Shown piece after piece: positions 3,493 through 56,615 of a stretch of 64,000 nucleotides of DNA. Source of the DNA: Sneathiellales bacterium. GTDB lineage: Bacteria > Pseudomonadota > Alphaproteobacteria > JANQFL01. Where the stretch lies: assembly GCA_028277845.1 (NCBI GenBank), contig JANQFL010000087.1:13704-77703 (forward strand), read 5' to 3'. How positions within the stretch are numbered: the first letter of the stretch is position 1; each line of letters starts with the position of its first letter. The notes under the pieces are model-generated. The model was not told where the DNA came from. It saw only the letters and a program-made list of their open reading frames with translations, and searched no databases. Made by a program: the position numbers and the translations under genes.

Positions 3493-4464
3493 TCAGAACG
3501 TTTGCCGGTACCAGCCGATCATCTTGTCCAGTCCCTGCTCCAGCGAGACCCGAAACGCGAAGTCGGGCACGATGGCGCGGAACCGGCTCATATCGGCGCT
3601 CTTGACGAACCGGCCTTCCGGTCTGGACGTATCGGTCTGCAGCACCGGGTCCAGGCCGCCGAGCCGGCAGATCAGAGCGACCAGATCGGTCATGCAGATG
3701 GTTTCCTCGGTGCCGATATTGATTGCGCCATTGCTGTGCCCGGACGCCACCAGCAACGCCATCATTTGGGCGCAGTCGCTGGCGTGGACGTAACTGCGGC
3801 GCTGTTTGCCGCTGCCCCAGATGACCACCGGATCGGCACCGTCCATCACCCGCTTCACCAGCATGGGGATGGCCTGGCTGAATTCGCCCATCCAGTTGTA
3901 GCGCTCGCCGTAGATGTTGAATGGCCGTACGATCGTCATCGGAATGCCGGACTCGCGGCCGGCGATCAGCGCCTTTTGCTCAAGAAATCGCTTGGCCCAC
4001 CCATAGCCCCAGTTGACCGCCTCGGGGTCGCCTTCGAACAGCGGTAGTTCGGGTACCGTGTCGGGACCGTCATCGGCGTAGACGCAGGACGACGAGGTAA
4101 TGAGAACGTGCTCGGGTTTGTGGACGCAGACGGCATCGAGTACGGCATTGGTGATGCGTTCGTTGTGCTGCAGGATGTCGTAGTGCCGGCCGGCCGCGTA
4201 ACCGACGCCGTAGGCCCGGCTGGCCAAATGAAACACCATTTGGGCATCGGCCAGGGCATCGTGCGCGAATTCGGCGATTTCAAGATTGCCTTCGCGGATA
4301 ATCACCTGGTCCGCAATCTGTTTCAGATTCTCGCGCCGGCCTTTGGAAAAATCGTCGACTACGATCACTTTTGCGCCCGCACCTACCAGCTCGTCGCAGA
4401 GATACGAACCGATCAGTCCGGCGCCGCCGGTCACGGCGACGGTCTTGTCGCGGACATTGGCCAC
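3493..4464 (-). CDS. NAD-dependent sugar epimerase/dehydratase (extended SDR)
   Basis: N-terminal Rossmann motif VTGGAGLIGSYL and catalytic YxxxK (YGWAK). Confidence 0.8.
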   Translation of the reverse strand: MANVRDKTVAVTGGAGLIGSYLCDELVGAGAKVIVVDDFSKGRRENLKQIADQVIIREGNLEIAEFAHDALADAQMVFHLASRAYGVGYAAGRHYDILQHNERITNAVLDAVCVHKPEHVLITSSSCVYADDGPDTVPELPLFEGDPEAVNWGYGWAKRFLEQKALIAGRESGIPMTIVRPFNIYGERYNWMGEFSQAIPMLVKRVMDGADPVVIWGSGKQRRSYVHASDCAQMMALLVASGHSNGAINIGTEETICMTDLVALICRLGGLDPVLQTDTSRPEGRFVKSADMSRFRAIVPDFAFRVSLEQGLDKMIGWYRQTF

Positions 4465-4474
4465 TGTTCAGATC

Positions 4475-5350
4475 CTAGTCGTCCAGTTCATAGCCGACGG
4501 CACGGATCTCGGCCGCGAGTTCTTGTTCGATCAGCCGGCGTTGGTGCGCGTTTAAAGTCTGTTTCCAGCGATACAGCGGCGATTCACTCACCGTGGTCAT
4601 ATTGTCGTAAGACGAATTGGCGGCGATAGGTTTCCCCAACCGAGACGGTTGCAGAACGCAGGGATCGAAATCGATGCCGATGAAGTCGCACAGGCTGCGC
4701 ATGGTCTTTTCGGTATCTTGTACCAAATCCTCGTAACGCAGGCCGTAGGCGTTCGGCTCGGGAGAGATCCAGAACCGGTTGGCCACATTGCGCCACAGGC
4801 CGCAGAAATCAACGAGTTCATTGTCATCGAACGGCCGGTTGCGGGTCTTTTCGCGCAGTTTGGTGTGGCTGGCAAACGTGGCGCGCGGATCGCGGATCGA
4901 CACCACATACTTGGCCGGGCCGAAGATCTTCTCGACATAGGGAGTCGGCCGCTTGCAGATATTGGCGATATGATTGACCGTCACACCGCGCCGGGGATGG
5001 CCGCAGAACGACGGGAAATAGATCTCCTGAAATAAATCATAGAACTCTTGCAAATTGCGTACCGGTCCAACCCGGCGGCCCACTTTCTCGGTCAACTGTC
5101 CATATGCGCCTTCGCCGTGGATCATTGTAATCATGTCCTCGAGGCGCTGGTGAAAACCGGCCTCGCGCAGTTTTAGGCTTCGCGGCAGATAACGGTAGAG
5201 AGCGAAATAGGGCTGCTTGATTTCGTTTTTGTTGCAGGTATTCCAGTATTCGAACGGGAAGACGTTGCATGCGGGATGACCGTCCAGCAGATTGTTGGTC
5301 AACGTGCCGCCGGAGCGGGACATGGACACGATGGAGACGTTGGTGTTCAC
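4475..5350 (-). CDS. sulfotransferase (PAPS-dependent type)
   Basis: N-terminal 5'-PSB-like motif SMSRSGGT and 3'-PB-like SIRDPRA; 291 aa. Confidence 0.7.
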   Translation of the reverse strand: MNTNVSIVSMSRSGGTLTNNLLDGHPACNVFPFEYWNTCNKNEIKQPYFALYRYLPRSLKLREAGFHQRLEDMITMIHGEGAYGQLTEKVGRRVGPVRNLQEFYDLFQEIYFPSFCGHPRRGVTVNHIANICKRPTPYVEKIFGPAKYVVSIRDPRATFASHTKLREKTRNRPFDDNELVDFCGLWRNVANRFWISPEPNAYGLRYEDLVQDTEKTMRSLCDFIGIDFDPCVLQPSRLGKPIAANSSYDNMTTVSESPLYRWKQTLNAHQRRLIEQELAAEIRAVGYELDD

Positions 5351-5402
5351 GTTGCGCAGTACCTAACTTGGTCGAAATGTTGAGTCCGGTTTGACCGGCG
5401 GC

Positions 5403-6776
5403 TCAGGCCGCCTGTTCGGCGACGGTGTCGTCGATCACGTCGACCAGACTCTCACCGTATTCCTTGCCGGTGTCGGCGACGAAATAGCGCGATTCGTCGC
5501 GCAGGCGGTCGGCGACGCACGGGTCGCCGATTTGCGCGATGAGCTCTCCGAACCGCGCCGGGAAATCGTCCTGAGCATCGCATTTAAGGATGCTGGTCTT
5601 GGCGATGAAGTCGTTGAAGTGCACCAGACCGAGATTGTGGTCGTTCGATTGGTTGGAGAGCGGATAGAACATCATCGCCGGCTTGCCGTTGAGCACCGAT
5701 TCAAGCAATACCGTGGAGAGTGGCGACACCACCGCCGAGGCGAGACGCAACAGCCGGTTCATGACATTGTAGTCGGCCAGATACATCGAAGACTTACCGT
5801 CGACGATGCGCTGGCGGTAAAAATCGGCCATGGATGGGTCCATGCTGATATGTTTCCACGGCACGGCAAAGAAGTCTTGTTCCTCGATTCCCAGGCCACG
5901 CCGCCACGGATGCGGTCGGTAAACGACATGAACGTCGGGCGCCTCGCCGCTCTCGATCATGTCGTCCATCATCTTCAGGTAGACGGTTTCGTAGTTGCCC
6001 GAACCGTTGCCGGCATAGAGCACAATACGTTTGCCGTCCGGCACGCCGAACTCGTCGCGCAGGGCCCGCTCGGAGGTATCGGTGGGGCGCCGGTAGACCT
6101 GGAACTGGGCGGCGCCAATCGCGCGCACCCGGTCACCGGCTATCCCCATATACTCGGTCGCCAGGTTCTTGCTGTGCTCGCCCCACACCACCAGGCGGTC
6201 GGGATAGCCCGACGACATGGCCTTGGCCGACGGATTGTCCCACGAGTTCATCAGGGCGATGAACGGGATCTTCCGCCGCTGGCAGATCTGCAGCAGGTCG
6301 TTCATGAAATAACCGCCGAGGACCGACGGATGAACGATGACATCCGGTTGGTGCCGGGCGATGAATTCGTCGAGGGGTTGGTGTGTGCCCATATAGCGGG
6401 TATAGGCGAAGCGGAAAAATGGAAAGACGAAAGGCAAGGCCAGGATGTCGAGGATACGGGTGCGTTTCTCGCCGATGGCGTTGACGACGTAGTTGCGCCG
6501 CGGCTCGTAGTTTCGCTTACCCCTCTGCAGGCGGAGCGCGTTGATCGTCACCAGCCACCACCACATGCCCATGCGCTTGCGCGGTACTTCGACGGTTTCC
6601 ATCTGGGCCAGGCCGAGGGTTGCCGGATCGGTATAGACGCCTTTTTTCTCCGACGTGGTGTCGCTGTGAAACACGTAGGTGACGTCGTAGCGCCGTTCCA
6701 ACGCCTGGAACGCGCCGCTGTGCACGAAATTGCGCACGACGGCATCCATGTCGATGAAGACGAGAGCCTTTTTCAC
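5403..6776 (-). CDS. hypothetical protein, capsule-synthesis/TagF-like fold with RPHP motif; possible (nonulosonic) sugar or glycerophosphate transferase
   Basis: 457 aa ORF with protein-like composition; VVYRPHP motif recalls the KPHP motif of KpsC/KpsS/TagF-type transferases. Family assignment is tentative. Confidence 0.45.
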   Translation of the reverse strand: MKKALVFIDMDAVVRNFVHSGAFQALERRYDVTYVFHSDTTSEKKGVYTDPATLGLAQMETVEVPRKRMGMWWWLVTINALRLQRGKRNYEPRRNYVVNAIGEKRTRILDILALPFVFPFFRFAYTRYMGTHQPLDEFIARHQPDVIVHPSVLGGYFMNDLLQICQRRKIPFIALMNSWDNPSAKAMSSGYPDRLVVWGEHSKNLATEYMGIAGDRVRAIGAAQFQVYRRPTDTSERALRDEFGVPDGKRIVLYAGNGSGNYETVYLKMMDDMIESGEAPDVHVVYRPHPWRRGLGIEEQDFFAVPWKHISMDPSMADFYRQRIVDGKSSMYLADYNVMNRLLRLASAVVSPLSTVLLESVLNGKPAMMFYPLSNQSNDHNLGLVHFNDFIAKTSILKCDAQDDFPARFGELIAQIGDPCVADRLRDESRYFVADTGKEYGESLVDVIDDTVAEQAA

Positions 6777-10932: not shown

Positions 10933-11888
10933 CGGCCGGACTCCCTCGCCAGTGCGCGCAACGCCTTGTCGATGACGAAGGCTTCGGTCTCGCTCCAGGC
11001 GTCGTGGGTCGAACCGCCGATATGCGGCGTCAGGATCAGATTGTCGTGTTCCCGGGCATAGACGGCGACGCGGCTGTCACCGAACGACTGGGCAAAATCG
11101 GTGCGGTATTCGCCGTCGATGGTATCGAGGGCGGCGGCCTGGAGATGGCCCGATTCCAGCAGGTCGAGCAAGGCGTCCAGGTCCAGGAGTTCGCCGCGGG
11201 CCGTGTTGACCACCACGGCGCCCCGGGGCAGCGCCTCCAGCACGGCGCGCGAAACGAGGTTGCGGGTTCCGTCGTTGGCCGGTGCGTGCAGGGACAGGAC
11301 ATCGGAGCCGGCGGCCAGGGCTTCGATTGTGTCCACGCCGCCGTCGACGTAGGGATCGTAGTAGGCCGTCTTCATACCGATGGCTTCGGCGATGCGGGCG
11401 ACCTTGCGGCCCAGCCGGCCATAGCCGACAAGGCCCAGGCGCATACGGGACAACATGCGCGGCGCACCCCACGGCCGCCGGTTCCAGGCACCACTGGCCG
11501 CCGCCGCGTGAGCCGCCGGAATCCGCCGCCAGGCCGCCATCATCAGGCCGATGGCGTGTTCCGCCGTCGGTGTGATGCCGTCGAGAAACTCGGGCTCGTC
11601 GTGCAGGGCGCACACCGCGATATGTCTGCTCGCGGCGGCCTGGGCATCGATATGGGGAATGCCCGTGGTGTTGGACACGACCGCGCGCAGGCGTGGGCAG
11701 CGATCCATCTTGTCCGCGTCCACGGCAAATCCCAGGGGCGCGAACAGCACTTCGGTTTCGGCCAACATGTCCGCCGTGTCGTCGCGCGGGTCATCCAACG
11801 CCGTCAGGTCGAAACAGTCCCGAAGCCGGGCCAGGTTCTCGGGCTGGTAGCTCATGATGCGGTAATAGAGGGCGCGGGGACGGGGCAT
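10929..11888 (-). CDS. D-isomer-specific 2-hydroxyacid dehydrogenase family
   Basis: NAD-binding GLVGYGRLGRKVA and C-terminal catalytic region (LILTPHIGGST). Start set at Met 58 of the ORF (11888) to avoid overlap with the upstream gene; Met 69 (11855) is an alternative. Confidence 0.7.
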   Translation of the reverse strand: MPRPRALYYRIMSYQPENLARLRDCFDLTALDDPRDDTADMLAETEVLFAPLGFAVDADKMDRCPRLRAVVSNTTGIPHIDAQAAASRHIAVCALHDEPEFLDGITPTAEHAIGLMMAAWRRIPAAHAAAASGAWNRRPWGAPRMLSRMRLGLVGYGRLGRKVARIAEAIGMKTAYYDPYVDGGVDTIEALAAGSDVLSLHAPANDGTRNLVSRAVLEALPRGAVVVNTARGELLDLDALLDLLESGHLQAAALDTIDGEYRTDFAQSFGDSRVAVYAREHDNLILTPHIGGSTHDAWSETEAFVIDKALRALARESGR

Positions 11889-11895
11889 CGCGGAG

Positions 11896-13050
11896 TCAGT
11901 AGGCCAGGGTCTTGTCGACCGGTGGCAAAGGCGCGGCAAGGCATGCGGCAATCTGTTCGCCCGCGCGGCCGTCGCCGTAAACCGTATCGGAGGGATAGAC
12001 GCCGTGCGCGATCTGGCGCCGGGTTGCGGCGACGATCTCGTCGGTGTCGTGGCCGACATTGACGACGTTGCCGCCCTGCTGGCGGCCGCGCTGGCGGTTG
12101 CCGATATTGACCACCGGGACTCCGAGGAACGCGCTTTCGCGAATGCCGCTCGACGTGTTGCCGACCAGGCATACCGCGTTCTTGATCAACGCCGCATAAC
12201 GTACGAAGTTCAGCCCCGAAATCGTCCGCACCGGCGGGGCATCGCCGTTCGATTGCAGGGCACTTAAAGGGCCGGCCACCGATTGGGCGCCGGCGTCGTC
12301 GTTGGGCAGCACCCAGATAGTGGGAATGTTCAACTCCACCACGGCATCGGCGGTGTGCGTGAACTGGCGCCGGGCATCGTCGTATTCCGTCACGACGGGA
12401 TGCTGCGACACCACCAGGTATTCCGCCGTCAGATCGACCGCGGCGCCGTTGCCGTTGTCGGTCAAACACCGGTCCAAATCATCACCGGCGGCCAAGTCGA
12501 GACCGGCGAGCTGATCCAGACTCGGCGTGCCGACGACGTGCACGGTGTCGGCAATCTCGCCCAGGCGGATCAGCCGGTCGGCCGCGTCCCTGTTGGCCGG
12601 AAAATGAATGTGGGCCAATTTGGTGATGGCGTGCCGGATGCGTTCGTCGATGGAACCCGAAACCTCGCCGCCCTCCAGATGGGCGATGACGGTATTGCGG
12701 CACATCGCCGCCTGGGCGATCGACAGGCATTCGTACCGGTCGGCGATGACCATCACCACGTCGGGATCGAGCTCGGTCAGAATTCGGCCGAATGCGATCG
12801 TGCAACGGCCGGCCGACTCGACGACCGAGTCGAGCGTCTGCCCAGCGGCGATATAGTCCAGGGTGCGGTCGATGGTGAAACCATCCCATTCGATAACTTC
12901 GACAAAGGAGTCGTAGTCTTGCCCGAGCAGGATACCGCCCACGACCAACTGCAGGGACAAATCGGGGTGGCGCTGAATGGCCGCCATGGTCGATTTCATC
13001 TTGCCGTAATTGCCCCGCGTGGTCAGGACGATGCAGATGCGGCGACTCAC
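11896..13050 (-). CDS. UDP-N-acetylglucosamine 2-epimerase (hydrolysing), NeuC/LegG-like
   Basis: 384 aa; motifs IADRYECLSIAQAA and HLEGGEVSGSIDE typical of the UDP-GlcNAc 2-epimerase family. Confidence 0.75.
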   Translation of the reverse strand: MSRRICIVLTTRGNYGKMKSTMAAIQRHPDLSLQLVVGGILLGQDYDSFVEVIEWDGFTIDRTLDYIAAGQTLDSVVESAGRCTIAFGRILTELDPDVVMVIADRYECLSIAQAAMCRNTVIAHLEGGEVSGSIDERIRHAITKLAHIHFPANRDAADRLIRLGEIADTVHVVGTPSLDQLAGLDLAAGDDLDRCLTDNGNGAAVDLTAEYLVVSQHPVVTEYDDARRQFTHTADAVVELNIPTIWVLPNDDAGAQSVAGPLSALQSNGDAPPVRTISGLNFVRYAALIKNAVCLVGNTSSGIRESAFLGVPVVNIGNRQRGRQQGGNVVNVGHDTDEIVAATRRQIAHGVYPSDTVYGDGRAGEQIAACLAAPLPPVDKTLAY

Positions 13051-14081
13051 GGTTCGAGAACCTCCCAGGTCAGCGGCGCGTCTGCGGCGACCGGTTGCTT
13101 GAGGCGCTTGCCGATCACATCGGCCAGATCACCGGGCGAGATCCCGGTGCCGGGCCGTTTGGCGGCGACATCGGTTTCGGCGATCACGTGACCGGCCGGC
13201 AGATCGTTGCGGGCAACCAGGGATTTCAGCGCCCATTCCATGCCCGGCCGCTCGCTGGCCGCCGGTTCCTTGCGGCCATGCCCGAGCATGGTCTCGACCC
13301 GTCGGATATCGGCCACCAATTGCGGCAGATCCTCGGGGCCGGCCGAGACCTTCCAGTCCTGGGCATTGGGCACGTCGCGCAGAATGGTGATGTGCTTCTC
13401 GATGATCTGGGCGCCGCGGGCGACCGCCGCAAGCACGGCCAAACCGTCTTCCGTGTGATCGGAATAACCGACCGGGCCGGGGAACGCCGTGCGTATATGG
13501 TCCATCGCACTCAGATTGACATCGGCCGGCGGTGCCGGATAGCTGGTGACACAATGCAGCAGGGCGATATCGGCGCATCCGGCGTACAGGCAGGCGTTCG
13601 TCGCTTCGGCGATATCGTCCAGGCCGTACATGCCGGTCGAGATGATCATCGGTTTGCCAAGCGCCGCCAGACGGGCCAGGAAGGCTGGATTGCCGCGCTC
13701 GCCCGAGCCGACCTTGACCGCCGGCACATCCAGGGTTTCGAGCCACGGGATACGGGTCTCGTCATGGGCGGTCGCCATGAACAACAGCCCGCGGGCTTCG
13801 CAGCGTTCTTTCAGTTCGACCGCCTGATCCAAGGTCAGGTTGCGCGGCCGCAACCGGTCCTGCCAGTCGGCGGCCCGGTTGGAGATCAGTGCCTCGACGT
13901 CGAAAAACTGGGTCTTGAAGACATCCGCGTTGGCATCGGCCGCCAGGTCCACCAGGTCACGGGCCAAGCCCATGTCGCCGAAATGGGCGACGCCGGCTTC
14001 GGCGATGAACAGGCAGGGTGCGTCACCGCCGACCCGGCGATCGCCGATGCGGAACGAAGACACCGGCTGAAGGCTGTTCAT
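13047..14081 (-). CDS. N-acetylneuraminate synthase family (NeuB/LegI/PseI-like nonulosonic acid synthase)
   Basis: Start at internal Met (MNSLQPV) giving ATGA overlap with the upstream ABC gene stop; NeuB-like TIM-barrel region plus C-terminal SAF-like domain. Confidence 0.8.
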   Translation of the reverse strand: MNSLQPVSSFRIGDRRVGGDAPCLFIAEAGVAHFGDMGLARDLVDLAADANADVFKTQFFDVEALISNRAADWQDRLRPRNLTLDQAVELKERCEARGLLFMATAHDETRIPWLETLDVPAVKVGSGERGNPAFLARLAALGKPMIISTGMYGLDDIAEATNACLYAGCADIALLHCVTSYPAPPADVNLSAMDHIRTAFPGPVGYSDHTEDGLAVLAAVARGAQIIEKHITILRDVPNAQDWKVSAGPEDLPQLVADIRRVETMLGHGRKEPAASERPGMEWALKSLVARNDLPAGHVIAETDVAAKRPGTGISPGDLADVIGKRLKQPVAADAPLTWEVLEP

Positions 14082-20777: not shown

Positions 20778-21197
20778 ATGCCTGTCATGACGGCGGAACA
20801 GATTCACAGCTTCCTGGAAGAACATTTTCCGCAGATTTCCCATCTCGATATGCGCATCGAGGATGTCCGGAAAAACGGCATCACGGTCCGGATTCCCTAT
20901 CACGAACGGCACCTGCGTCCCGGCGGCACCATATCCGGGCCGACCATGATGGCGTTGGCCGACGCCGGCACCTATCTGGCCATATTGGCCCAGCTCGGTC
21001 CGGTCGCCGAGGCCGTCACCACCAATCTGAACATCAATTTCCTCAGGAAACCCGGGCAAAACGACATCGTCGCCCAATGCAATATCCTGAAACTGGGCAA
21101 GCGGCTGGCGGTCGGCGAGGTCACCATTTTCAGCGCCGGCGAAGACGACCCCGTCGCCCACGCCACCATGACCTATTCGATCCCGCCCCGTGAATAG
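20778..21197 (+). CDS. PaaI-family (hotdog fold) thioesterase
   Basis: 139 aa; GGAG 8 nt upstream of the ATG; hotdog-thioesterase-like core (HGGTISGPTMMALADAG). Confidence 0.65.
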   Translation: MPVMTAEQIHSFLEEHFPQISHLDMRIEDVRKNGITVRIPYHERHLRPGGTISGPTMMALADAGTYLAILAQLGPVAEAVTTNLNINFLRKPGQNDIVAQCNILKLGKRLAVGEVTIFSAGEDDPVAHATMTYSIPPRE

Positions 21198-36582: not shown

Positions 36583-37407
36583 ATGATCGGATTCCGCAAA
36601 GCCGTCCTGGGTTTGTCGATCGCAGCCATTGCCGCCGTGGCGAGCGGCGCGGCGGATGCCAAGATGCCCCGTTCGCTGCTCGGGTCGGTCGGCAAGGCGA
36701 CCGGAGCCGCTGCCGGCAGGGCCGCGGCGAAAATGATCATGCGATCCGGCTCGGAACGGCAGGACAGCCAAATCCAATCCGGGAGCCGCGCAAAGATCAG
36801 AACGGCCACGCGGACCGTGACCGTCGCGCCATCGCCATTCATCAGCCAAGGCGACAACCCGCAAATCCGGATGATTTTGACGAAAGCGGAACGGCATTTC
36901 GTCATGCAGGACTACGACAACAGCTTGAAACTGCTGTCCGGACAGACGGTACAGGACCATCCGCACGCCAAGTTTCTCACCGGTATTCATCACGAATACG
37001 GACTGGCCACCACGCGGGACGATGCCAAGGCAGCGGAACACTACGAAGTGGCCGCCGCCAAAGGGCATGCCGCCGCGCAATACAATCTCGGCCTGATGTA
37101 CAGCGACGGGCGCGGCGTCGACCGCATGCCCGACCGGGCTCTGTTGTGGATCGAACTGGCCGCCAATCAGGGACTGCCAGATGCGCAATATGCCCTGGGC
37201 CTGCTGTACTACAATGGCAAGGGCGCCGAACAGGACCTGGTGGTCGCCCTGAAATGGTTTGAAGTCGCCGCCGGCTACGGCCATACCAGCAGCGAACAGA
37301 ATATTGCCCCCTTGTCCAAGTCGATGAAAAAGGACGACGTGGTCCGGGCCCGGCAATTGGCCTCCATCTGGCGGCCGTCGAAACGCAATCCCGCGGCACC
37401 ACGCTAG
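36583..37407 (+). CDS. Sel1-repeat secreted protein
   Basis: Signal peptide (AIAAVASGAADA) and Sel1 repeats (AQYNLGLMYSDGRGVD..., AQYALGLLYYNGKGAEQD...). Confidence 0.7.
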   Translation: MIGFRKAVLGLSIAAIAAVASGAADAKMPRSLLGSVGKATGAAAGRAAAKMIMRSGSERQDSQIQSGSRAKIRTATRTVTVAPSPFISQGDNPQIRMILTKAERHFVMQDYDNSLKLLSGQTVQDHPHAKFLTGIHHEYGLATTRDDAKAAEHYEVAAAKGHAAAQYNLGLMYSDGRGVDRMPDRALLWIELAANQGLPDAQYALGLLYYNGKGAEQDLVVALKWFEVAAGYGHTSSEQNIAPLSKSMKKDDVVRARQLASIWRPSKRNPAAPR

Positions 37408-52216: not shown

Positions 52217-52873
52217 ATGAGTTACGCGGTACGCTCCAGCATCGACGTAGCGCTCTGGTTTCACGACCGGGCGGATACCGGCGGCCGGCATCTATCCGCC
52301 CAAAAACTGCAAAGGCTGTTGCTGTTGACGCAAGCCGGGTATGCGCCGCAGGGCCTGGAAATCGCCTTCATGCCGGCGATATTCGTTCCTTCATCCATGG
52401 GGCCGGTGGACCCCAACATCTTCGCCTTGTTCGAGAACGGACTTCCCGCCATGACGCGCCACCCCATGTCGGAGAGGGCGGACGCGCACTTGAACGCCGT
52501 GTGGAATACATACGGTACTGCCGGCGCGGAGGACTTACGCGCCACAATCGACGGGAATCTGAGCTGCATGCGCCTGGTCGCAGGAAATGATTCGGCGGTT
52601 CCCAAACCGTCGGTGCCGCAAAACGCCAACGACGCGCCCAACAAAGAAACACATACCGTACCACCCAAGCCCAAACAGCCGGTGAAACCGCATATCATCA
52701 AAGGACAATCGGAGCGCGATTCGGGCAAATCCGATAAGGGCGGCAGTGTTCTGGCAGACCTTGCCCGGGATCTGCAAGACATGCAGAAACCAAAAAAGAA
52801 GACGGCGAAGAGCCCCATCTCGATCGGTCGCAAGGACGTGCGCAAATGGCATCCGCACAAGCGCGCCGACTAA
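52217..52873 (+). CDS. Panacea (DUF4065, SocA-like) domain protein with Lys/Pro-rich basic C-terminal tail
   Basis: N-terminal ~90 aa match the Panacea pattern as I recall it (DVALWFHDRA...LSAQKLQRLLLLTQAGY...MGPVDPNIFALF); C-terminal ~90 aa are low-complexity and basic. Confidence 0.5.
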   Translation: MSYAVRSSIDVALWFHDRADTGGRHLSAQKLQRLLLLTQAGYAPQGLEIAFMPAIFVPSSMGPVDPNIFALFENGLPAMTRHPMSERADAHLNAVWNTYGTAGAEDLRATIDGNLSCMRLVAGNDSAVPKPSVPQNANDAPNKETHTVPPKPKQPVKPHIIKGQSERDSGKSDKGGSVLADLARDLQDMQKPKKKTAKSPISIGRKDVRKWHPHKRAD

Positions 52874-52928
52874 GCCCACGAACGACCATCCCAAAACACG
52901 TTAACTATATGAAATATCGTTGAAATTT

Positions 52929-52960
52929 TGTCCGGACACATTAACTCGGGTGTCGGGACA
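52929..52960 (+). promoter_or_regulatory. pair of operator-like 10 bp palindromes upstream of the RHH-encoding ORF
   Basis: TGTCCGGACA (52929-52938, perfect palindrome) and TGTCGGGACA (52951-52960), centres 22 bp apart, ~100 bp upstream of the ATG at 53058. Confidence 0.3.
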
Positions 52961-53057
52961 CGATAGACGGTACGTTCCCACACGAAATGTGTTGTGATGA
53001 TTGCGTTGCGGCCGACATTGGCGGGAGCGCAACGAATTGCTGCAAGGACGACCAGCG

Positions 53058-53891
53058 ATGAGCAAGAAGACGGAAACACTCGAAGTCCGCGTGTCACCGG
53101 AACTGAAGGCCAGATTCACGGCCGTAAGCCGGGAGCGAGGCCAGCCCATGAGCCATATCATCCGGCATTTGATGCAACAGGAAATCGATTCGTATGCGCC
53201 AGACCCTCACCAGCACGGAGTACGCGCTATGAATTCATGGAAATTACACCGGTTCGGCACCATCGCAGCATCGGGACTCGTCGTTCTAGGCTTGGCACTC
53301 GCCATGAACGCGGCCACCCAGTCCACCGTTTCGGCCCGGGCGGACGTTCGCGTGACGTTTGCCGAAATGGACGTCAACGACGACGGCAAGATCACACAAC
53401 AGGAATACGAAACGTTCTGGAAGCAGATGGAGGAAGACTTCGAGCAGGAAGAGGACATTGCTCACGCGGACGACACTCCCGCGGCGTGCAAGGCCGATTT
53501 CGCCAAACTCGAAGAACTGGACCGCCATCACGGCCACGACCAATACCGTTATGATTTCTCGGCGGTCGACGGCAACAAGGATGGCGCCGTTCGTTATGCC
53601 GAGCTACAGTCCGCCTTCGACGTGATGCACACGGCCGAATTCCGGGAGATCGACCGGAACCAGGACGCGTTCCTGGACACCGGCGAACTCATGCGGGCTT
53701 TTCAGGAAGACGAACCCAGCCTCAGCAAGGCCTGTAAGGACGCCATGCTCGAATCCCACCCGGATGCGTTCGAGTTTCACGAAGACGATGCGCGGTTGAT
53801 CCTGGCGCAATTCGACGAAAACCGCGACCGGAAGATCAGCTTGCAGGAGTTTATCGAAAATCAGCCCGCCGATATCGGTTTCGGCGACTGA
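53058..53891 (+). CDS. predicted RHH (CopG-like) domain fused to a transmembrane helix and a periplasmic EF-hand domain; alternatively a signal-peptide EF-hand protein starting at 53229
   Basis: In-frame N-terminal RHH-like segment (LEVRVSPELKARFTAVSRERGQPMSHIIRHLMQQEI) with AAGGA RBS, then a hydrophobic helix with positive residues on the N-side, then canonical EF-hand loops (DVNDDGKITQQE, DGNKDGAVRYAE, DENRDRKISLQE). Confidence 0.5.
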   Translation: MSKKTETLEVRVSPELKARFTAVSRERGQPMSHIIRHLMQQEIDSYAPDPHQHGVRAMNSWKLHRFGTIAASGLVVLGLALAMNAATQSTVSARADVRVTFAEMDVNDDGKITQQEYETFWKQMEEDFEQEEDIAHADDTPAACKADFAKLEELDRHHGHDQYRYDFSAVDGNKDGAVRYAELQSAFDVMHTAEFREIDRNQDAFLDTGELMRAFQEDEPSLSKACKDAMLESHPDAFEFHEDDARLILAQFDENRDRKISLQEFIENQPADIGFGD

Positions 53892-53933
53892 TTGCCGGAC
53901 ATCGTTCGACGGTTACTTCGCAATGGAAGGCCC

Positions 53934-53964
53934 GGCCGGTGGGAGCGTGTTTTTCCCTCCGGCC
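53934..53964. terminator. possible bidirectional hairpin between convergent genes
   Basis: GGCCGGTGGGA - 9 nt loop - TCCCTCCGGCC (10/11 bp stem), with the T-run inside the loop. Confidence 0.3.
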
Positions 53965-53968
53965 GTCG

Positions 53969-54940
53969 TCATTCCGCCTTCTTTTTCATCTTCTCAAGCT
54001 GCTTTTTGAACTGCTCGCACGGATCGTTCGTGTCGACCCTGGGCGTGAACCACACGAAGTCGAATTTGTCCGCGTCTTCGTACGCGGCGATGTCCGTGGC
54101 ATCGTGGGAAACCTCGCGAAATCCGACACTGACAACGGTTCCATCCGGATCGATGATGCGCAGATAGAAGGGTACGCCACGATCCAACCTGGCGTGGCCG
54201 GCGCCGGTAATGAGAACGGCGCCGTCACGGCTCCCACCGTAGACCATGCGCTCCGACATCACCGCGTCGCGTGCACGCTGCACACGGGCAATGGCTGGAA
54301 CCGCATTGGGCGGTATCTGGTTGCAGTGAGACACGACGATTTCGTCCTCGAGTTCTTTCTGCAGCACTTCGGGAAACGGCTTGTCCAGCCCGGATTTACC
54401 GACCAAGTCCTGACCGAGGACAGCAAATCCCTGACGGGCGACACCGCGGTTGTTCTTACGCGGCAGGTTGGCCGCTACGACAGTCGCTCCGGCGGCGACA
54501 GCCGCATCGGCAATCGGTTGGTAGTTGGACCAGTCGGGCCAGCCGGATCGTTTCCATTCAATCCGTTCTCCGAGCCTACCCGCATCCGAATGCCCCTCGG
54601 ACAAATACGCGTCGATGACCGGCTGCTTGTCGGTTTCGATCATTTCGAAAGCCAAATCGGGCCGCCGGCCAGTGGCATAGACCGTCCGTGCCAGTTTGGC
54701 CTGAAGTCGGTGGTGATCGCGGTTGTCATGTTTCTCCCCAAGCAGAACATACCTGGCCCGCCGGACCGCGGCGGCGACGTCTTCCGCGGTGACAAACTGT
54801 TGCGTGCGTGTGGACCATATCTTGCCAATCAAGGGATGATCGGCGAGCGCCGAGTGATGCCAGTCGGACGCATCGGCCGAAAGCGGCCATACGAAGGCCA
54901 GAAGCGCGACAAGGAAGCCTTTGAACCCGCGCCTAGGCAT
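53969..54940 (-). CDS. ChaN-family (haem-binding/Tiki-like) periplasmic protein
   Basis: Signal peptide from internal Met (MPRRGFKGFLVALLAFVWPLSADA) and ChaN-like motif YVLLGEKHDNRDHH. Confidence 0.55.
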   Translation of the reverse strand: MPRRGFKGFLVALLAFVWPLSADASDWHHSALADHPLIGKIWSTRTQQFVTAEDVAAAVRRARYVLLGEKHDNRDHHRLQAKLARTVYATGRRPDLAFEMIETDKQPVIDAYLSEGHSDAGRLGERIEWKRSGWPDWSNYQPIADAAVAAGATVVAANLPRKNNRGVARQGFAVLGQDLVGKSGLDKPFPEVLQKELEDEIVVSHCNQIPPNAVPAIARVQRARDAVMSERMVYGGSRDGAVLITGAGHARLDRGVPFYLRIIDPDGTVVSVGFREVSHDATDIAAYEDADKFDFVWFTPRVDTNDPCEQFKKQLEKMKKKAE

Positions 54941-56615
54941 AATAAAGCAGCAGATAGATGGCGAGCAGGACCGCCACCCACAGTACCGTACTGCCCGTGG
55001 GCCAGGTGCGTGCCAGAATGCCTTGCGGTCCATGATGGCGGAAAACACCGGCAACGATGGTGTCGAGGTTGCGCCGGGTCCAAACGCTTGCCGACTTGTT
55101 GAACTGGACGATGGCATCGGTCAACCGGTCGACGATCACATATCCGAACACCCGGTAGAACCAATCGAAGTCCAGCGTGATGGTCAGCGTGCGTTTCATC
55201 ATCGGCAGCAGCACGAAGAAGGCCAGCCCTGCAAACAACAGCAATTGAAGCATATTGATCACGTGGGCAGCGGTGTACGGCGCGTACTGGACCGGATACG
55301 GCAATAGATCGTAGAGGAACTGGGGCCATAGTCCGATGCCGATGCAGGCCGCCGCGAACAGAATCATGGCGAGCCGCATATTCCACGGCGGATCGGGGGG
55401 CCGCATGCCGGAATCCTTCTGGAAGAACACGAACCACGGGAACTTGATGCCGGCATGCAGGAAGACGCCGGCGGACGCGGCGGTCAGCAGGAACCAGATG
55501 ATGGCCATGTGCTCGTCCGCCGCGCCTTGGCTGATCATGGATTTCGATACGAATCCCGATGTCCACGGGAACGACGAAATGGCCAGGGCACCGATGGTAC
55601 CGCATAGTGCCGTCAGCGGCATGCTTTGAAACAGTCCGCCGAGGTCGGTGCATTTGCGCTTGCCGGTCATGTACAGCACCGCACCGGCCGACATGAGCAG
55701 CAACGCCTTGTAGATGATGTGGGTAAAGGCATGGGCGGCGGCGCCATTCAGGCTCATCTCCGTACCGATGCCGATGCCCGTGACCATGAACCCGACCTGA
55801 TTGACGATGCTGTAGGCGAGAATGCGCCGCATGTCGTTTTCCAGCAGCGCATAGACGATGCCGTAGAACACCATGAAGATGCCGATATAGATCAGGATCT
55901 CGGTGCCGGGAAACCCGCGCATGAGGACATAGACCGCCGTCTTGGTGGTAAAGGCGGAGAGGAACACCGTACCGCTCCACGACGCCTCGGGATAGGCATC
56001 GGGCAGCCAGGCCGAGAGCGGCGGCGCACCGGCGTTGAGCAGGAAACCGGCGAGGATCATCCAGGTCCCGAAACTGTCGGCTTCCATGGCGCCGAAAGCC
56101 AGCGATCCGGTATCCGCCACATGGGCGACGATGCCGGTCATCAGCACGACGCCGCCCAGCAAGTGTATGATCAGATAGCGGATGGAGGCGCGGTAGGCCG
56201 CGGTCGTGGCGGCGCTCCAAATCACCATGGTCGACGCCACCGCCATGATTTCCCAGAACACGAAGGCGGTGAACAGATCACCGGCCATGGCCACGCCGAT
56301 GGCGCTGCCCGCATACACGAACCCCGCGACCAGTTCGACGGTGCGGTCCTGATTGAGCGCGAACAGGCCGCCGCCGAATGCCATGATGGCGAAGATGGTG
56401 GCGAACAGCCGTCCCAGCGAATCGGCCCGGACCGGCTCTATCACGTAGTCGAGGAACGGCAAAGCCGAAACCATGTCGCCCGGCACCTGCCAGATCGCGA
56501 ACAAAGCGAGCAACGGGAGCGCCAGAGTAAACACGGCGCGGATAGTCCGTCCGCCAAATAGAAGCAACGCGGCACCGAGGATCAGGATGAGGCCGGGCGG
56601 AAGGCTAGTCAGCAT
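54933..56615 (-). CDS. proton-pumping antiporter-like subunit (MrpD/NuoL/M/N family)
   Basis: 560 aa polytopic membrane protein with antiporter-module-like helices. Confidence 0.75.
   Translation of the reverse strand: MLTSLPPGLILILGAALLLFGGRTIRAVFTLALPLLALFAIWQVPGDMVSALPFLDYVIEPVRADSLGRLFATIFAIMAFGGGLFALNQDRTVELVAGFVYAGSAIGVAMAGDLFTAFVFWEIMAVASTMVIWSAATTAAYRASIRYLIIHLLGGVVLMTGIVAHVADTGSLAFGAMEADSFGTWMILAGFLLNAGAPPLSAWLPDAYPEASWSGTVFLSAFTTKTAVYVLMRGFPGTEILIYIGIFMVFYGIVYALLENDMRRILAYSIVNQVGFMVTGIGIGTEMSLNGAAAHAFTHIIYKALLLMSAGAVLYMTGKRKCTDLGGLFQSMPLTALCGTIGALAISSFPWTSGFVSKSMISQGAADEHMAIIWFLLTAASAGVFLHAGIKFPWFVFFQKDSGMRPPDPPWNMRLAMILFAAACIGIGLWPQFLYDLLPYPVQYAPYTAAHVINMLQLLLFAGLAFFVLLPMMKRTLTITLDFDWFYRVFGYVIVDRLTDAIVQFNKSASVWTRRNLDTIVAGVFRHHGPQGILARTWPTGSTVLWVAVLLAIYLLLYYA

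Follow-up and report, generated by a model that had tools for sequence, protein, structure and literature searches.

Can a transcription factor be built into the front of a signal peptide? The question is raised by a gene at positions 53058..53891 (+ strand) of a 64,000-nucleotide stretch of Sneathiellales bacterium DNA (assembly GCA_028277845.1, contig JANQFL010000087.1, positions 13,704 to 77,703), referred to here as the window. In a single frame, the gene encodes a ribbon-helix-helix (RHH) domain, a hydrophobic segment that ends in a predicted signal peptidase I site, and four EF-hands; an array of short palindromic boxes precedes it. The original prediction, made from the sequence alone, read it as a one-component transmembrane (TM) regulator sensing periplasmic calcium, with an ordinary secreted EF-hand protein as the alternative. 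We find that the fusion is conserved, that the boxes recur ahead of its relatives, and that in a sister subfamily the same boxes stand ahead of lepB, the gene for signal peptidase I. Our best reading, to which we give about an even chance, is a membrane-tethered RHH autoregulator with a cleavable signal-peptide tether, processed by signal peptidase, possibly gated by calcium, and acting on lepB where a target is known.

The frame runs uninterrupted from ATG 53058 to the stop codon TGA at 53889-53891, as had been proposed, and encodes 277 aa. A longer form starting at TTG 53001 is unsupported: all homologues begin MSKKTE. Public data hold a protein identical to the 277-aa product (P0001). An AlphaFold2 (AF2) model of this protein, with a mean predicted local distance difference test score (pLDDT) of 80, lays out residues 1-13 as extended, helices at 14-27 and 31-46, a disordered linker at 47-65, a long helix at 66-89, and then a four-EF-hand domain. 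The full open reading frame (ORF) is the long isoform of the gene: RHH, linker, TM segment or signal peptide, and four EF-hands.

RHH proteins act as dimers whose intersubunit beta-sheet enters the DNA major groove, and they read DNA with the N-terminal arm and beta-strand. The palindromic boxes that travel with the gene lend such a dimer indirect support here. Residues 1-46 (53058..53195, + strand) follow the layout of the RHH fold, with arm and strand MSKKTETLEVRV, helix 14-27, and helix 31-46; the AF2 model places the strand-helix-helix order at pLDDT 88-94. Profile matches are weak and concordant. Residues 4-44 match RHH_1 (E=0.021), RHH_10, and DUF6290 in Pfam, and the N-terminus matches RelB/DinJ in NCBIfam (E=0.0018). 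The window protein scores 15.2 bits against RHH_1, under the gathering cut-off of 20.5; relatives drawn from the N-terminal profile search lie above it (P0139 at 27.9, P0098 at 24.6, and P0067 at 20.6). When the N-terminal profile is compared with PDB sequences, the top matches are all RHH proteins: MazE7, VapB26, DinJ, NikA, ORF56, RelB, and Mnt (E 0.002 to 0.65). The G28 and S32 columns, which correspond to the tight turn G-x-S/T between the RHH helices, are conserved. Profiles and model agree that the assignment holds at the level of the family, and the RHH-like segment of the original prediction stands.

The fusion is persistent. A homologue search, the check proposed with the original prediction, returned 19 proteins of 262-337 aa, all covering 96-98% of the query, and all 19 keep the RHH-TM-EF-hand order, as do 22 loci in species-representative genomes. 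The hosts of these loci belong to several alphaproteobacterial orders and include Hoeflea, Nitratireductor, Cochlodiniinecator, Pelagibius, Roseicyclus, Aliiroseovarius, Thalassovita, and Caulobacteraceae. Overall identity is about 30-40%, and the most conserved part of the protein is its N-terminal 17 residues, MSKKTE.IE.R.SPELK. At these invariant residues the codons change synonymously (Ser2, for instance, is AGC in some loci and TCG or TCC in others), which argues that selection acts on protein and that the RHH part is translated; its resemblance to RHH proteins is therefore not coincidental. Among the copies, one in a Rhizobiaceae metagenome-assembled genome (MAG), L019, is split by a frameshift into two ORFs (5001-5793), either a long-read assembly error or a pseudogene, and that of L022 looks disrupted, its frame stopping after 82 aa. 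A look for plasmid or chromid copies that could be scanned whole found none.

How far the family extends became visible by exhaustive search: an earlier N-terminal profile search of a word-indexed database gave three fragments only. A profile of residues 1-50, run exhaustively against 1.84 billion cluster representatives, retrieved 2164 clusters at E<=1e-3 and 161 at E<=1e-10. Among 138 full-length motif-bearing matches, 127 have a hydrophobic segment and an AXA-like site by a lenient detector, the strict evidence for the site being two alignments described below, and 111 have EF loops after the TM segment. The matches fall into two subfamilies: a long form of 250-300 aa with four EF-hands, to which the window protein belongs, and a short form of 100-250 aa with one to four. 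The short form carries the N-terminal motif PKKSETLEIRLP.ETKQAFMARCR and has the same arm and beta-strand residues as the long form; two loci, L020 and L021, bridge the subfamilies. On sequence evidence, the fusion is ancient. Minimal members of about 110 aa are predicted to export a single EF-hand of about 30 aa, and it is hard to see how one such EF-hand could serve as a bulk calcium buffer. A few members (P0087, P0098, P0102, P0127, P0128, and P0146) keep the RHH, TM segment, and AXA site and carry in place of the EF-hand another exported domain that has no Pfam match; in one example this domain begins DDVELSIGG directly after the Ala of the site. This suggests that the module of an RHH on a signal peptide can carry other cargo.

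Does the cell make the RHH part at all, or does translation begin further in? The second possibility, offered as the alternative in the original prediction, is an ordinary secreted EF-hand protein that starts at Met58 and has non-functional RHH-like codons upstream. Met58 (53229..53231, + strand) is preceded by an internal Shine-Dalgarno (SD) sequence, GGAG (53217..53220, + strand), 8 nt before the ATG, and the n-, h-, and c-regions of a classical signal peptide follow it; the predicted short isoform would consist of this signal peptide and the EF-hand domain. The methionine is present in 17 of the 19 proteins, inside an otherwise variable linker. In all 17 Met-bearing loci GGAG, AGGA, or GAGG starts 10-13 nt upstream, usually at -12 (16 have an SD-like tetramer at -12/-13, and L011 has one at -10), and the residues encoded at the internal SD differ: HGV, TGE, KGD, MEP, ERT, and GRI. 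The nominal p for this conservation is about 2e-15, nominal because the 17 loci are phylogenetically related. The SD of the first ATG (53058) is weak or variable, which also suits translation from within. The same account is contradicted by the invariance of the first 17 residues under synonymous codon variation, by an RHH N-terminus common to 2164 clusters, and by the lack of an internal Met in four loci (L001, L013, L020, and L021) and in the whole short subfamily, where the fusion protein alone suffices.

We consider the secreted protein very improbable as the whole story and tenable only as an additional product. In that restricted role it fits well: the conserved internal SD and ATG indicate that the window gene probably has a plain secreted EF-hand protein as its second product. 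Most likely the gene yields two products, a long form at low level and a well-translated secreted form. The original prediction had also warned of homologues that all begin at the signal peptide; what we find is a conserved internal start together with a conserved RHH domain ahead of it. The alternative start was thus well chosen, and the coincidence that was to accompany it was not.

If the RHH domain is made, what might it bind? Two 10-bp palindromes had been noted upstream of the gene, 22 bp apart, and both are present. Box A (52929..52938), 129 nt upstream of the ATG, is the perfect palindrome TGTCCGGACA. Box B (52951..52963), 107 nt upstream, consists of TGTCGGGACA (52951-52960), which is imperfect at the palindrome centre, followed by CGA; it is the counterpart of the best conserved box of the family, TGTCCGGACACGAAA. 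An anchored alignment of upstream regions adds a third, degenerate copy, box C, CGTTCCCACACGAAA (52973..52987), and in the window boxes A, B, and C keep a 22-bp register from start to start. Directly after box C comes TGTGTTGTGAT, which may hold a -35 element. The sequence CGAAaTGTGTTGAGAT is common to the window, L001, L003, and L019, and after box C these read TGTGTTG(A/T)GAT. The general array of the family is box A, about 24 bp, box B TGTCCGGACACGAAA, about 21 bp, and a degenerate box C ending CGAA.

A box homologous to A is present in most of the 22 genome loci, in arrays spaced 21-24 bp. At no more than one mismatch, TGTCCGGACA occurs 33 times in the 5.6 kb upstream of 23 genes and 8 times in the remaining 273 kb; across these 23 loci, the 250 bp ahead of the gene contain 5.9 boxes per kb and the rest 0.03 per kb, an enrichment of about 200-fold. 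In the short subfamily, about 45 of 80 metagenome loci have the same perfect palindrome 54-114 nt upstream (one locus at -242), followed about 20 bp on by a CTGTC half-site. The conservation of these arrays makes the boxes operator-like, in keeping with the character first ascribed to them.

The window considered alone has 5 matches at no more than one mismatch vs 2.9 expected, which is not significant, and its two perfect copies of the 10-mer TGTCCGGACA in 64 kb are above expectation. The second perfect copy (36935-36944) lies inside a Sel1-repeat ORF (36583..37407, + strand), is single, and is probably due to chance. We rejected this and the one-mismatch matches at 20864 and 49236 as operators: they are at chance level or inside coding sequence. 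A further sequence right after the stop codon, TTGCCGGACA (53892-53901), agrees with the box at 8 of 10 positions, which on its own is chance level. A sigma-70 promoter scan of 52700-54100 gave no site. The idea that the box is a promoter for an extracytoplasmic function (ECF) sigma factor was also discarded: the spacings to -10-like elements misfit, and the box forms a palindrome that recurs at 21-22 bp.

Across the family, neither the box nor the DNA-reading part of the RHH domain varies, which fits direct recognition. Another unlinked regulator might instead bind the TGTCCGGACA boxes of this gene and of lepB, leaving the RHH domain a role elsewhere, such as antitoxin-like protein binding. 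Antitoxins do figure among the RHH profile matches; it is co-occurrence only that points from the RHH domain to the boxes, and there is no covariation signal between them because beta-strand and box are both invariant. Set against this are the boxes themselves, which accompany the RHH gene through Caulobacterales, Rhodobacterales, Rhizobiales, and a Pelagibius MAG and occur at 0.03 per kb elsewhere. No toxin partner or other conserved neighbour was found at the 23 loci, and the most conserved residues are those of the N-terminal arm and beta-strand, the very parts with which RHH proteins read DNA. We regard an unlinked regulator as improbable.

The short subfamily adds a second address for the boxes. 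Among 60 metagenome loci with at least 300 nt of downstream sequence, 50 have the signal peptidase I gene immediately downstream and convergent, often overlapping the stop of the RHH gene tail to tail by 4 nt. Where the contig includes the region upstream of lepB, nearly all loci have one box, or two boxes 21-22 bp apart, at 53-119 nt before the estimated start of lepB (two loci at about -250), with TTGA(G/C)C after them. Independent gene calls and Pfam Peptidase_S26 confirm the lepB neighbour in L104. Rearranged loci are informative. In L105, a Phenylobacterium MAG, two genes for a PAS histidine kinase and a hydrolase (11547-13502) are inserted between the RHH gene and lepB, and 20 kb of sequence contains just two perfect boxes, one ahead of the RHH gene and one ahead of Peptidase_S26. 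In L079 lepB runs in the direction of the RHH gene, with the boxes between the two. The bridging loci L020 and L021 lack a box ahead of the RHH gene and have, 1.35 kb downstream of it, two boxes 22 bp apart in front of a convergent lepB. From locus to locus, the boxes have lepB on one side and changing genes on the other. Upstream of the L020 gene is an ORF (3941..4897) that by eye reads like a PhyR-type stress regulator.

What kind of membrane segment joins the RHH domain to the EF-hands? The hydrophobic helix with positive-inside flank that had been described from the sequence is borne out: K62, H64, and R65 flank it on the N-terminal side, and its core runs from F66 to M83 (53253..53306, + strand), within AF2 helix 66-89. 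An alignment motif, V91-S92-A93 (53328..53336, + strand), follows as a predicted signal peptidase I site with the cut after A93, between A93 and R94; by sequence criteria, the basic residues, the hydrophobic core, and this motif make up a signal-peptide pattern. The two alignments give the strict evidence. The residue at -1 is Ala in 19/19 long-form and 23/24 short-form sequences, Pro never occurs at +1, and -3 is occupied by V/A/T/L (long form) or S/A/T (short form); 21 of 24 short-form sequences have Pro at -4. In the short subfamily the uncharged run up to the site Ala is typically as long as in a signal peptide (median 21 residues). The site is also tied to what follows it: the median spacing from the site to the first Asp of the first EF loop is 11 residues (interquartile range 9-12 for all members, 11-11 within the short subfamily). 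In the window, loop 1 starts at D105, exactly 11 residues after A93, and the AF2 helix that leads to it (95-104) begins two residues past the site.

The domain beyond this site is an EF-hand domain by profile score and loop pattern. Residues 97-267 score 65.3 bits against EF-hand_7 (cut-off 30) and 53.2 against EF-hand_1 (cut-off 25.4) in Pfam, and a Foldseek search of the AF2 model points to calmodulin and NCS-1. There are four canonical 12-residue loops, one more than the 'at least three' first counted, all on the + strand: D105-E116, DVNDDGKITQQE (53370..53405); D171-E182, DGNKDGAVRYAE (53568..53603); D199-E210, DRNQDAFLDTGE (53652..53687); and D253-E264, DENRDRKISLQE (53814..53849). Loop positions 1 and 12 are invariant in the family, and the intact ligand positions suggest that the loops would bind Ca2+; the protein may, by extension, sense calcium. 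Two alignment columns are invariant cysteines, Cys144 (53487..53489, + strand) and Cys226 (53733..53735, + strand), which are likely to form a disulfide and which fit an oxidising periplasmic location.

These features have to be weighed between two forms of tether. In the form given by the original prediction, the protein would be a stable one-component regulator in the style of ToxR and CadC: helix 66-89 would serve as an uncleaved anchor, and calcium bound by the periplasmic EF-hands would alter the dimerisation or orientation of the RHH domain, which would contact the boxes from the membrane. The conserved architecture is compatible with it, and the greater length of the segment in the long subfamily (a median uncharged run of 26 and an AF2 helix of 24) makes it more plausible there. 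The boxes, two helical turns apart and just upstream of the putative -35 element, are placed as for ToxR-type activators, and L001, L013, L020, and L021, lacking the internal Met, make only the fusion protein. An uncleaved anchor accounts poorly for the strict (-3,-1) motif, the Pro at -4, and the signal-peptide-length segment of the short subfamily, for the spacing of 11 residues fixed between motif and first EF-hand, for the linkage to lepB with an operator common to both genes, or for the few members that swap the EF-hand cargo yet keep RHH, TM segment, and AXA site. Given the conserved signal peptidase motif and the internal ATG and SD, a simple stable sensor of this type is unlikely, if a contender to be taken seriously. 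The one-component TM regulator first proposed thus survives as a real, translated, and conserved fusion and gives way in its simple, stable form. Cleavage after the hydrophobic segment had been named beforehand as an outcome that would speak against it; the conserved motif makes that cleavage a prediction for this family, and the objection is to that extent borne out.

Several points also weigh against the cleavable tether and the regulation we favour, beside the missing covariation and the bare co-occurrence of RHH domain and boxes, the lenient detector, and the relatedness of the loci. The uncharged run is 28 residues in the window (R65 to A93), and a long segment behind a folded N-terminal domain could be an uncleaved signal anchor. 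The boxes sit just upstream of the putative -35 element, a position from which activation and repression cannot be told apart. The lepB link is seen in the short sister subfamily and in L020 and L021 only: tblastn with a LepB sequence gave no match in the 64-kb window or in the sequence available for L001-L019.

With these reservations, we can state how a membrane-tethered, signal peptidase-processed autoregulator might work. The long form would insert with its N-terminus inside, and the RHH domain would stay in the cytoplasm and dimerise. The dimer would bind the TGTCCGGACA array, whose 22-bp spacing presents one face of the helix, at its own promoter; in relatives, the RHH domain would also bind the boxes before lepB. 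Signal peptidase would cut after A93 and part the EF-hand domain from the stub of RHH domain and membrane segment. The cut would change the state of the regulator, either through release by a site-2 protease or through loss of periplasmic dimerisation; the stub would share the fate of spent signal peptides, with a site-2 protease presumably acting on it, and the RHH domain would be released or destroyed. Calcium-dependent folding would probably gate the cut, since the first EF-hand begins directly at the cleavage site. In the subfamily of the window, the internal start at ATG 53229 would add a plain secreted EF-hand protein. Where lepB is the target, the outcome would be feedback on signal peptidase capacity.

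The architecture, the operator-like boxes, and the lepB linkage are well supported; the mechanism built on them (DNA binding by the RHH domain, membrane topology, cleavage, calcium gating, and the sign of regulation) is what we infer. Taken with all its parts, the proposal is of a transcription factor housed within the N-terminal extension of a cleavable signal peptide, processed like any secretory precursor, feeding back on lepB and on its own gene, cut in a calcium-dependent manner, and encoded, in the subfamily of the window, by a two-product gene. In this full form we hold it tentatively, at somewhat short of an even chance.

Each part of such a system has a known counterpart. Signal peptidase is the ligand-gated site-1 protease of the anti-sigma factors RsiV of Bacillus subtilis and RsiP of B. 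thuringiensis, and in RsiV a helix beside the site gates cleavage (PMC4183432, PMC6066255, PMC8844934). The window protein shares with them a cytoplasmic regulatory domain, one membrane segment, a signal peptidase site beyond it, and an extracytoplasmic ligand domain that starts at the site. It differs in that its cytoplasmic domain is a predicted DNA-binding RHH, whereas theirs is an anti-sigma domain; in its EF-hand ligand domain, where theirs senses lysozyme or beta-lactam; and in its alphaproteobacterial hosts, the operator-like boxes that the signal peptidase gene itself carries in relatives, and a cleavage that is predicted from sequence. It has no anti-sigma domain match and no conserved neighbouring sigma gene, and we regard the likeness as one of mechanism only, drawn by analogy.

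The likeness to ToxR, CadC, and TcpP lies in a cytoplasmic DNA-binding domain, an N-in topology (which would apply here), one membrane segment, a periplasmic sensor domain, and sites upstream of the -35 element (putative here). Those proteins have an OmpR-type winged helix where the window protein has an RHH, and they lack both a conserved signal peptidase motif and an EF-hand. With an RHH-like domain and no Trans_reg_C match, the window protein may work like the ToxR family without being a member of it. With the soluble RHH autoregulators (Arc, Mnt, CopG, MetJ, NikR, and the RelB/DinJ-type antitoxins), it shares the fold pattern and weak profile matches; short, palindromic or pseudopalindromic operators in tandem arrays, cooperative binding, and autoregulation are typical of that group. 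Unlike the window protein, these regulators are neither membrane-tethered nor N-terminal to a signal peptide, and NikR senses its metal through a cytoplasmic ACT-like domain, in contrast to the exported EF-hand here.

Periplasmic EF-hand proteins are known from EfhP of Pseudomonas aeruginosa (PMC4053335, PMC9132961) and CaBP (CCNA_02838) of Caulobacter vibrioides (PMC13171946). Like the window protein, they place an exported calcium-binding EF-hand domain in the Gram-negative envelope, and the Sec signal peptide of CaBP is cleaved, which is also our prediction for the short isoform. They have no DNA-binding domain, their effect on transcription is indirect, and no operator or lepB link is reported for them. 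The literature we searched contains no RHH-EF-hand, RHH-transmembrane, or RHH-signal-peptidase system, in agreement with the original remark that the architecture was not recognised as described, and no bacterial use of the box sequence; only papers on p53 response elements matched it.

In an all-against-all comparison of the ORFs at the 23 loci, nothing beside the gene was conserved throughout the long subfamily, neither a toxin partner nor a sigma gene; acyl-CoA dehydrogenase and FadJ-like genes recur beside the gene in some of these loci only. Directly upstream of the window gene lies an ORF of 218 aa (52217-52873, + strand) with a Lys/Pro-rich C-terminal half. Logan contig L103 has it as a gene call; neither Pfam nor NCBIfam gives a match for it, and it is not conserved beside homologues. 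The convergent gene downstream (53969-55117, - strand) encodes a ChaN/Tiki-type haem-binding protein (Cofac_haem_bdg, E=1e-46), and after it comes an ORF for a putative long membrane protein (54933-56615); neither is conserved beside homologues. An Rfam scan of the gene region returned a sub-threshold chance match only, and a look-up of P0001 made to extend the window contig yielded only a 3.8-kb Logan contig.

We place the family among the membrane-tethered, proteolysis-controlled regulators, in a new form. The databases, in which its members are labelled only 'EF-hand domain-containing protein' or 'hypothetical', have overlooked both the RHH part and the operator. To our knowledge, the control of signal peptidase I levels in bacteria, for which the enzyme is essential, is poorly understood, and few receptors for calcium have been defined there in molecular terms. 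The family offers a compact candidate for both: proteins of 110-280 aa that unite a DNA-binding domain of 45 residues, a predicted cleavage site, and a calcium-binding switch, and whose operator measures 10 bp. If the proposal is true, signal peptidase I would have its first dedicated regulator, one widespread in Alphaproteobacteria and a sensor of secretion capacity that works as a substrate of the enzyme. Signal peptidase, known as a signalling protease from Gram-positive anti-sigma factors, would then play that part for a Gram-negative regulator that itself binds DNA, and the nested translation starts of the gene would provide a bacterial example of a regulator and a secreted protein made from one frame.

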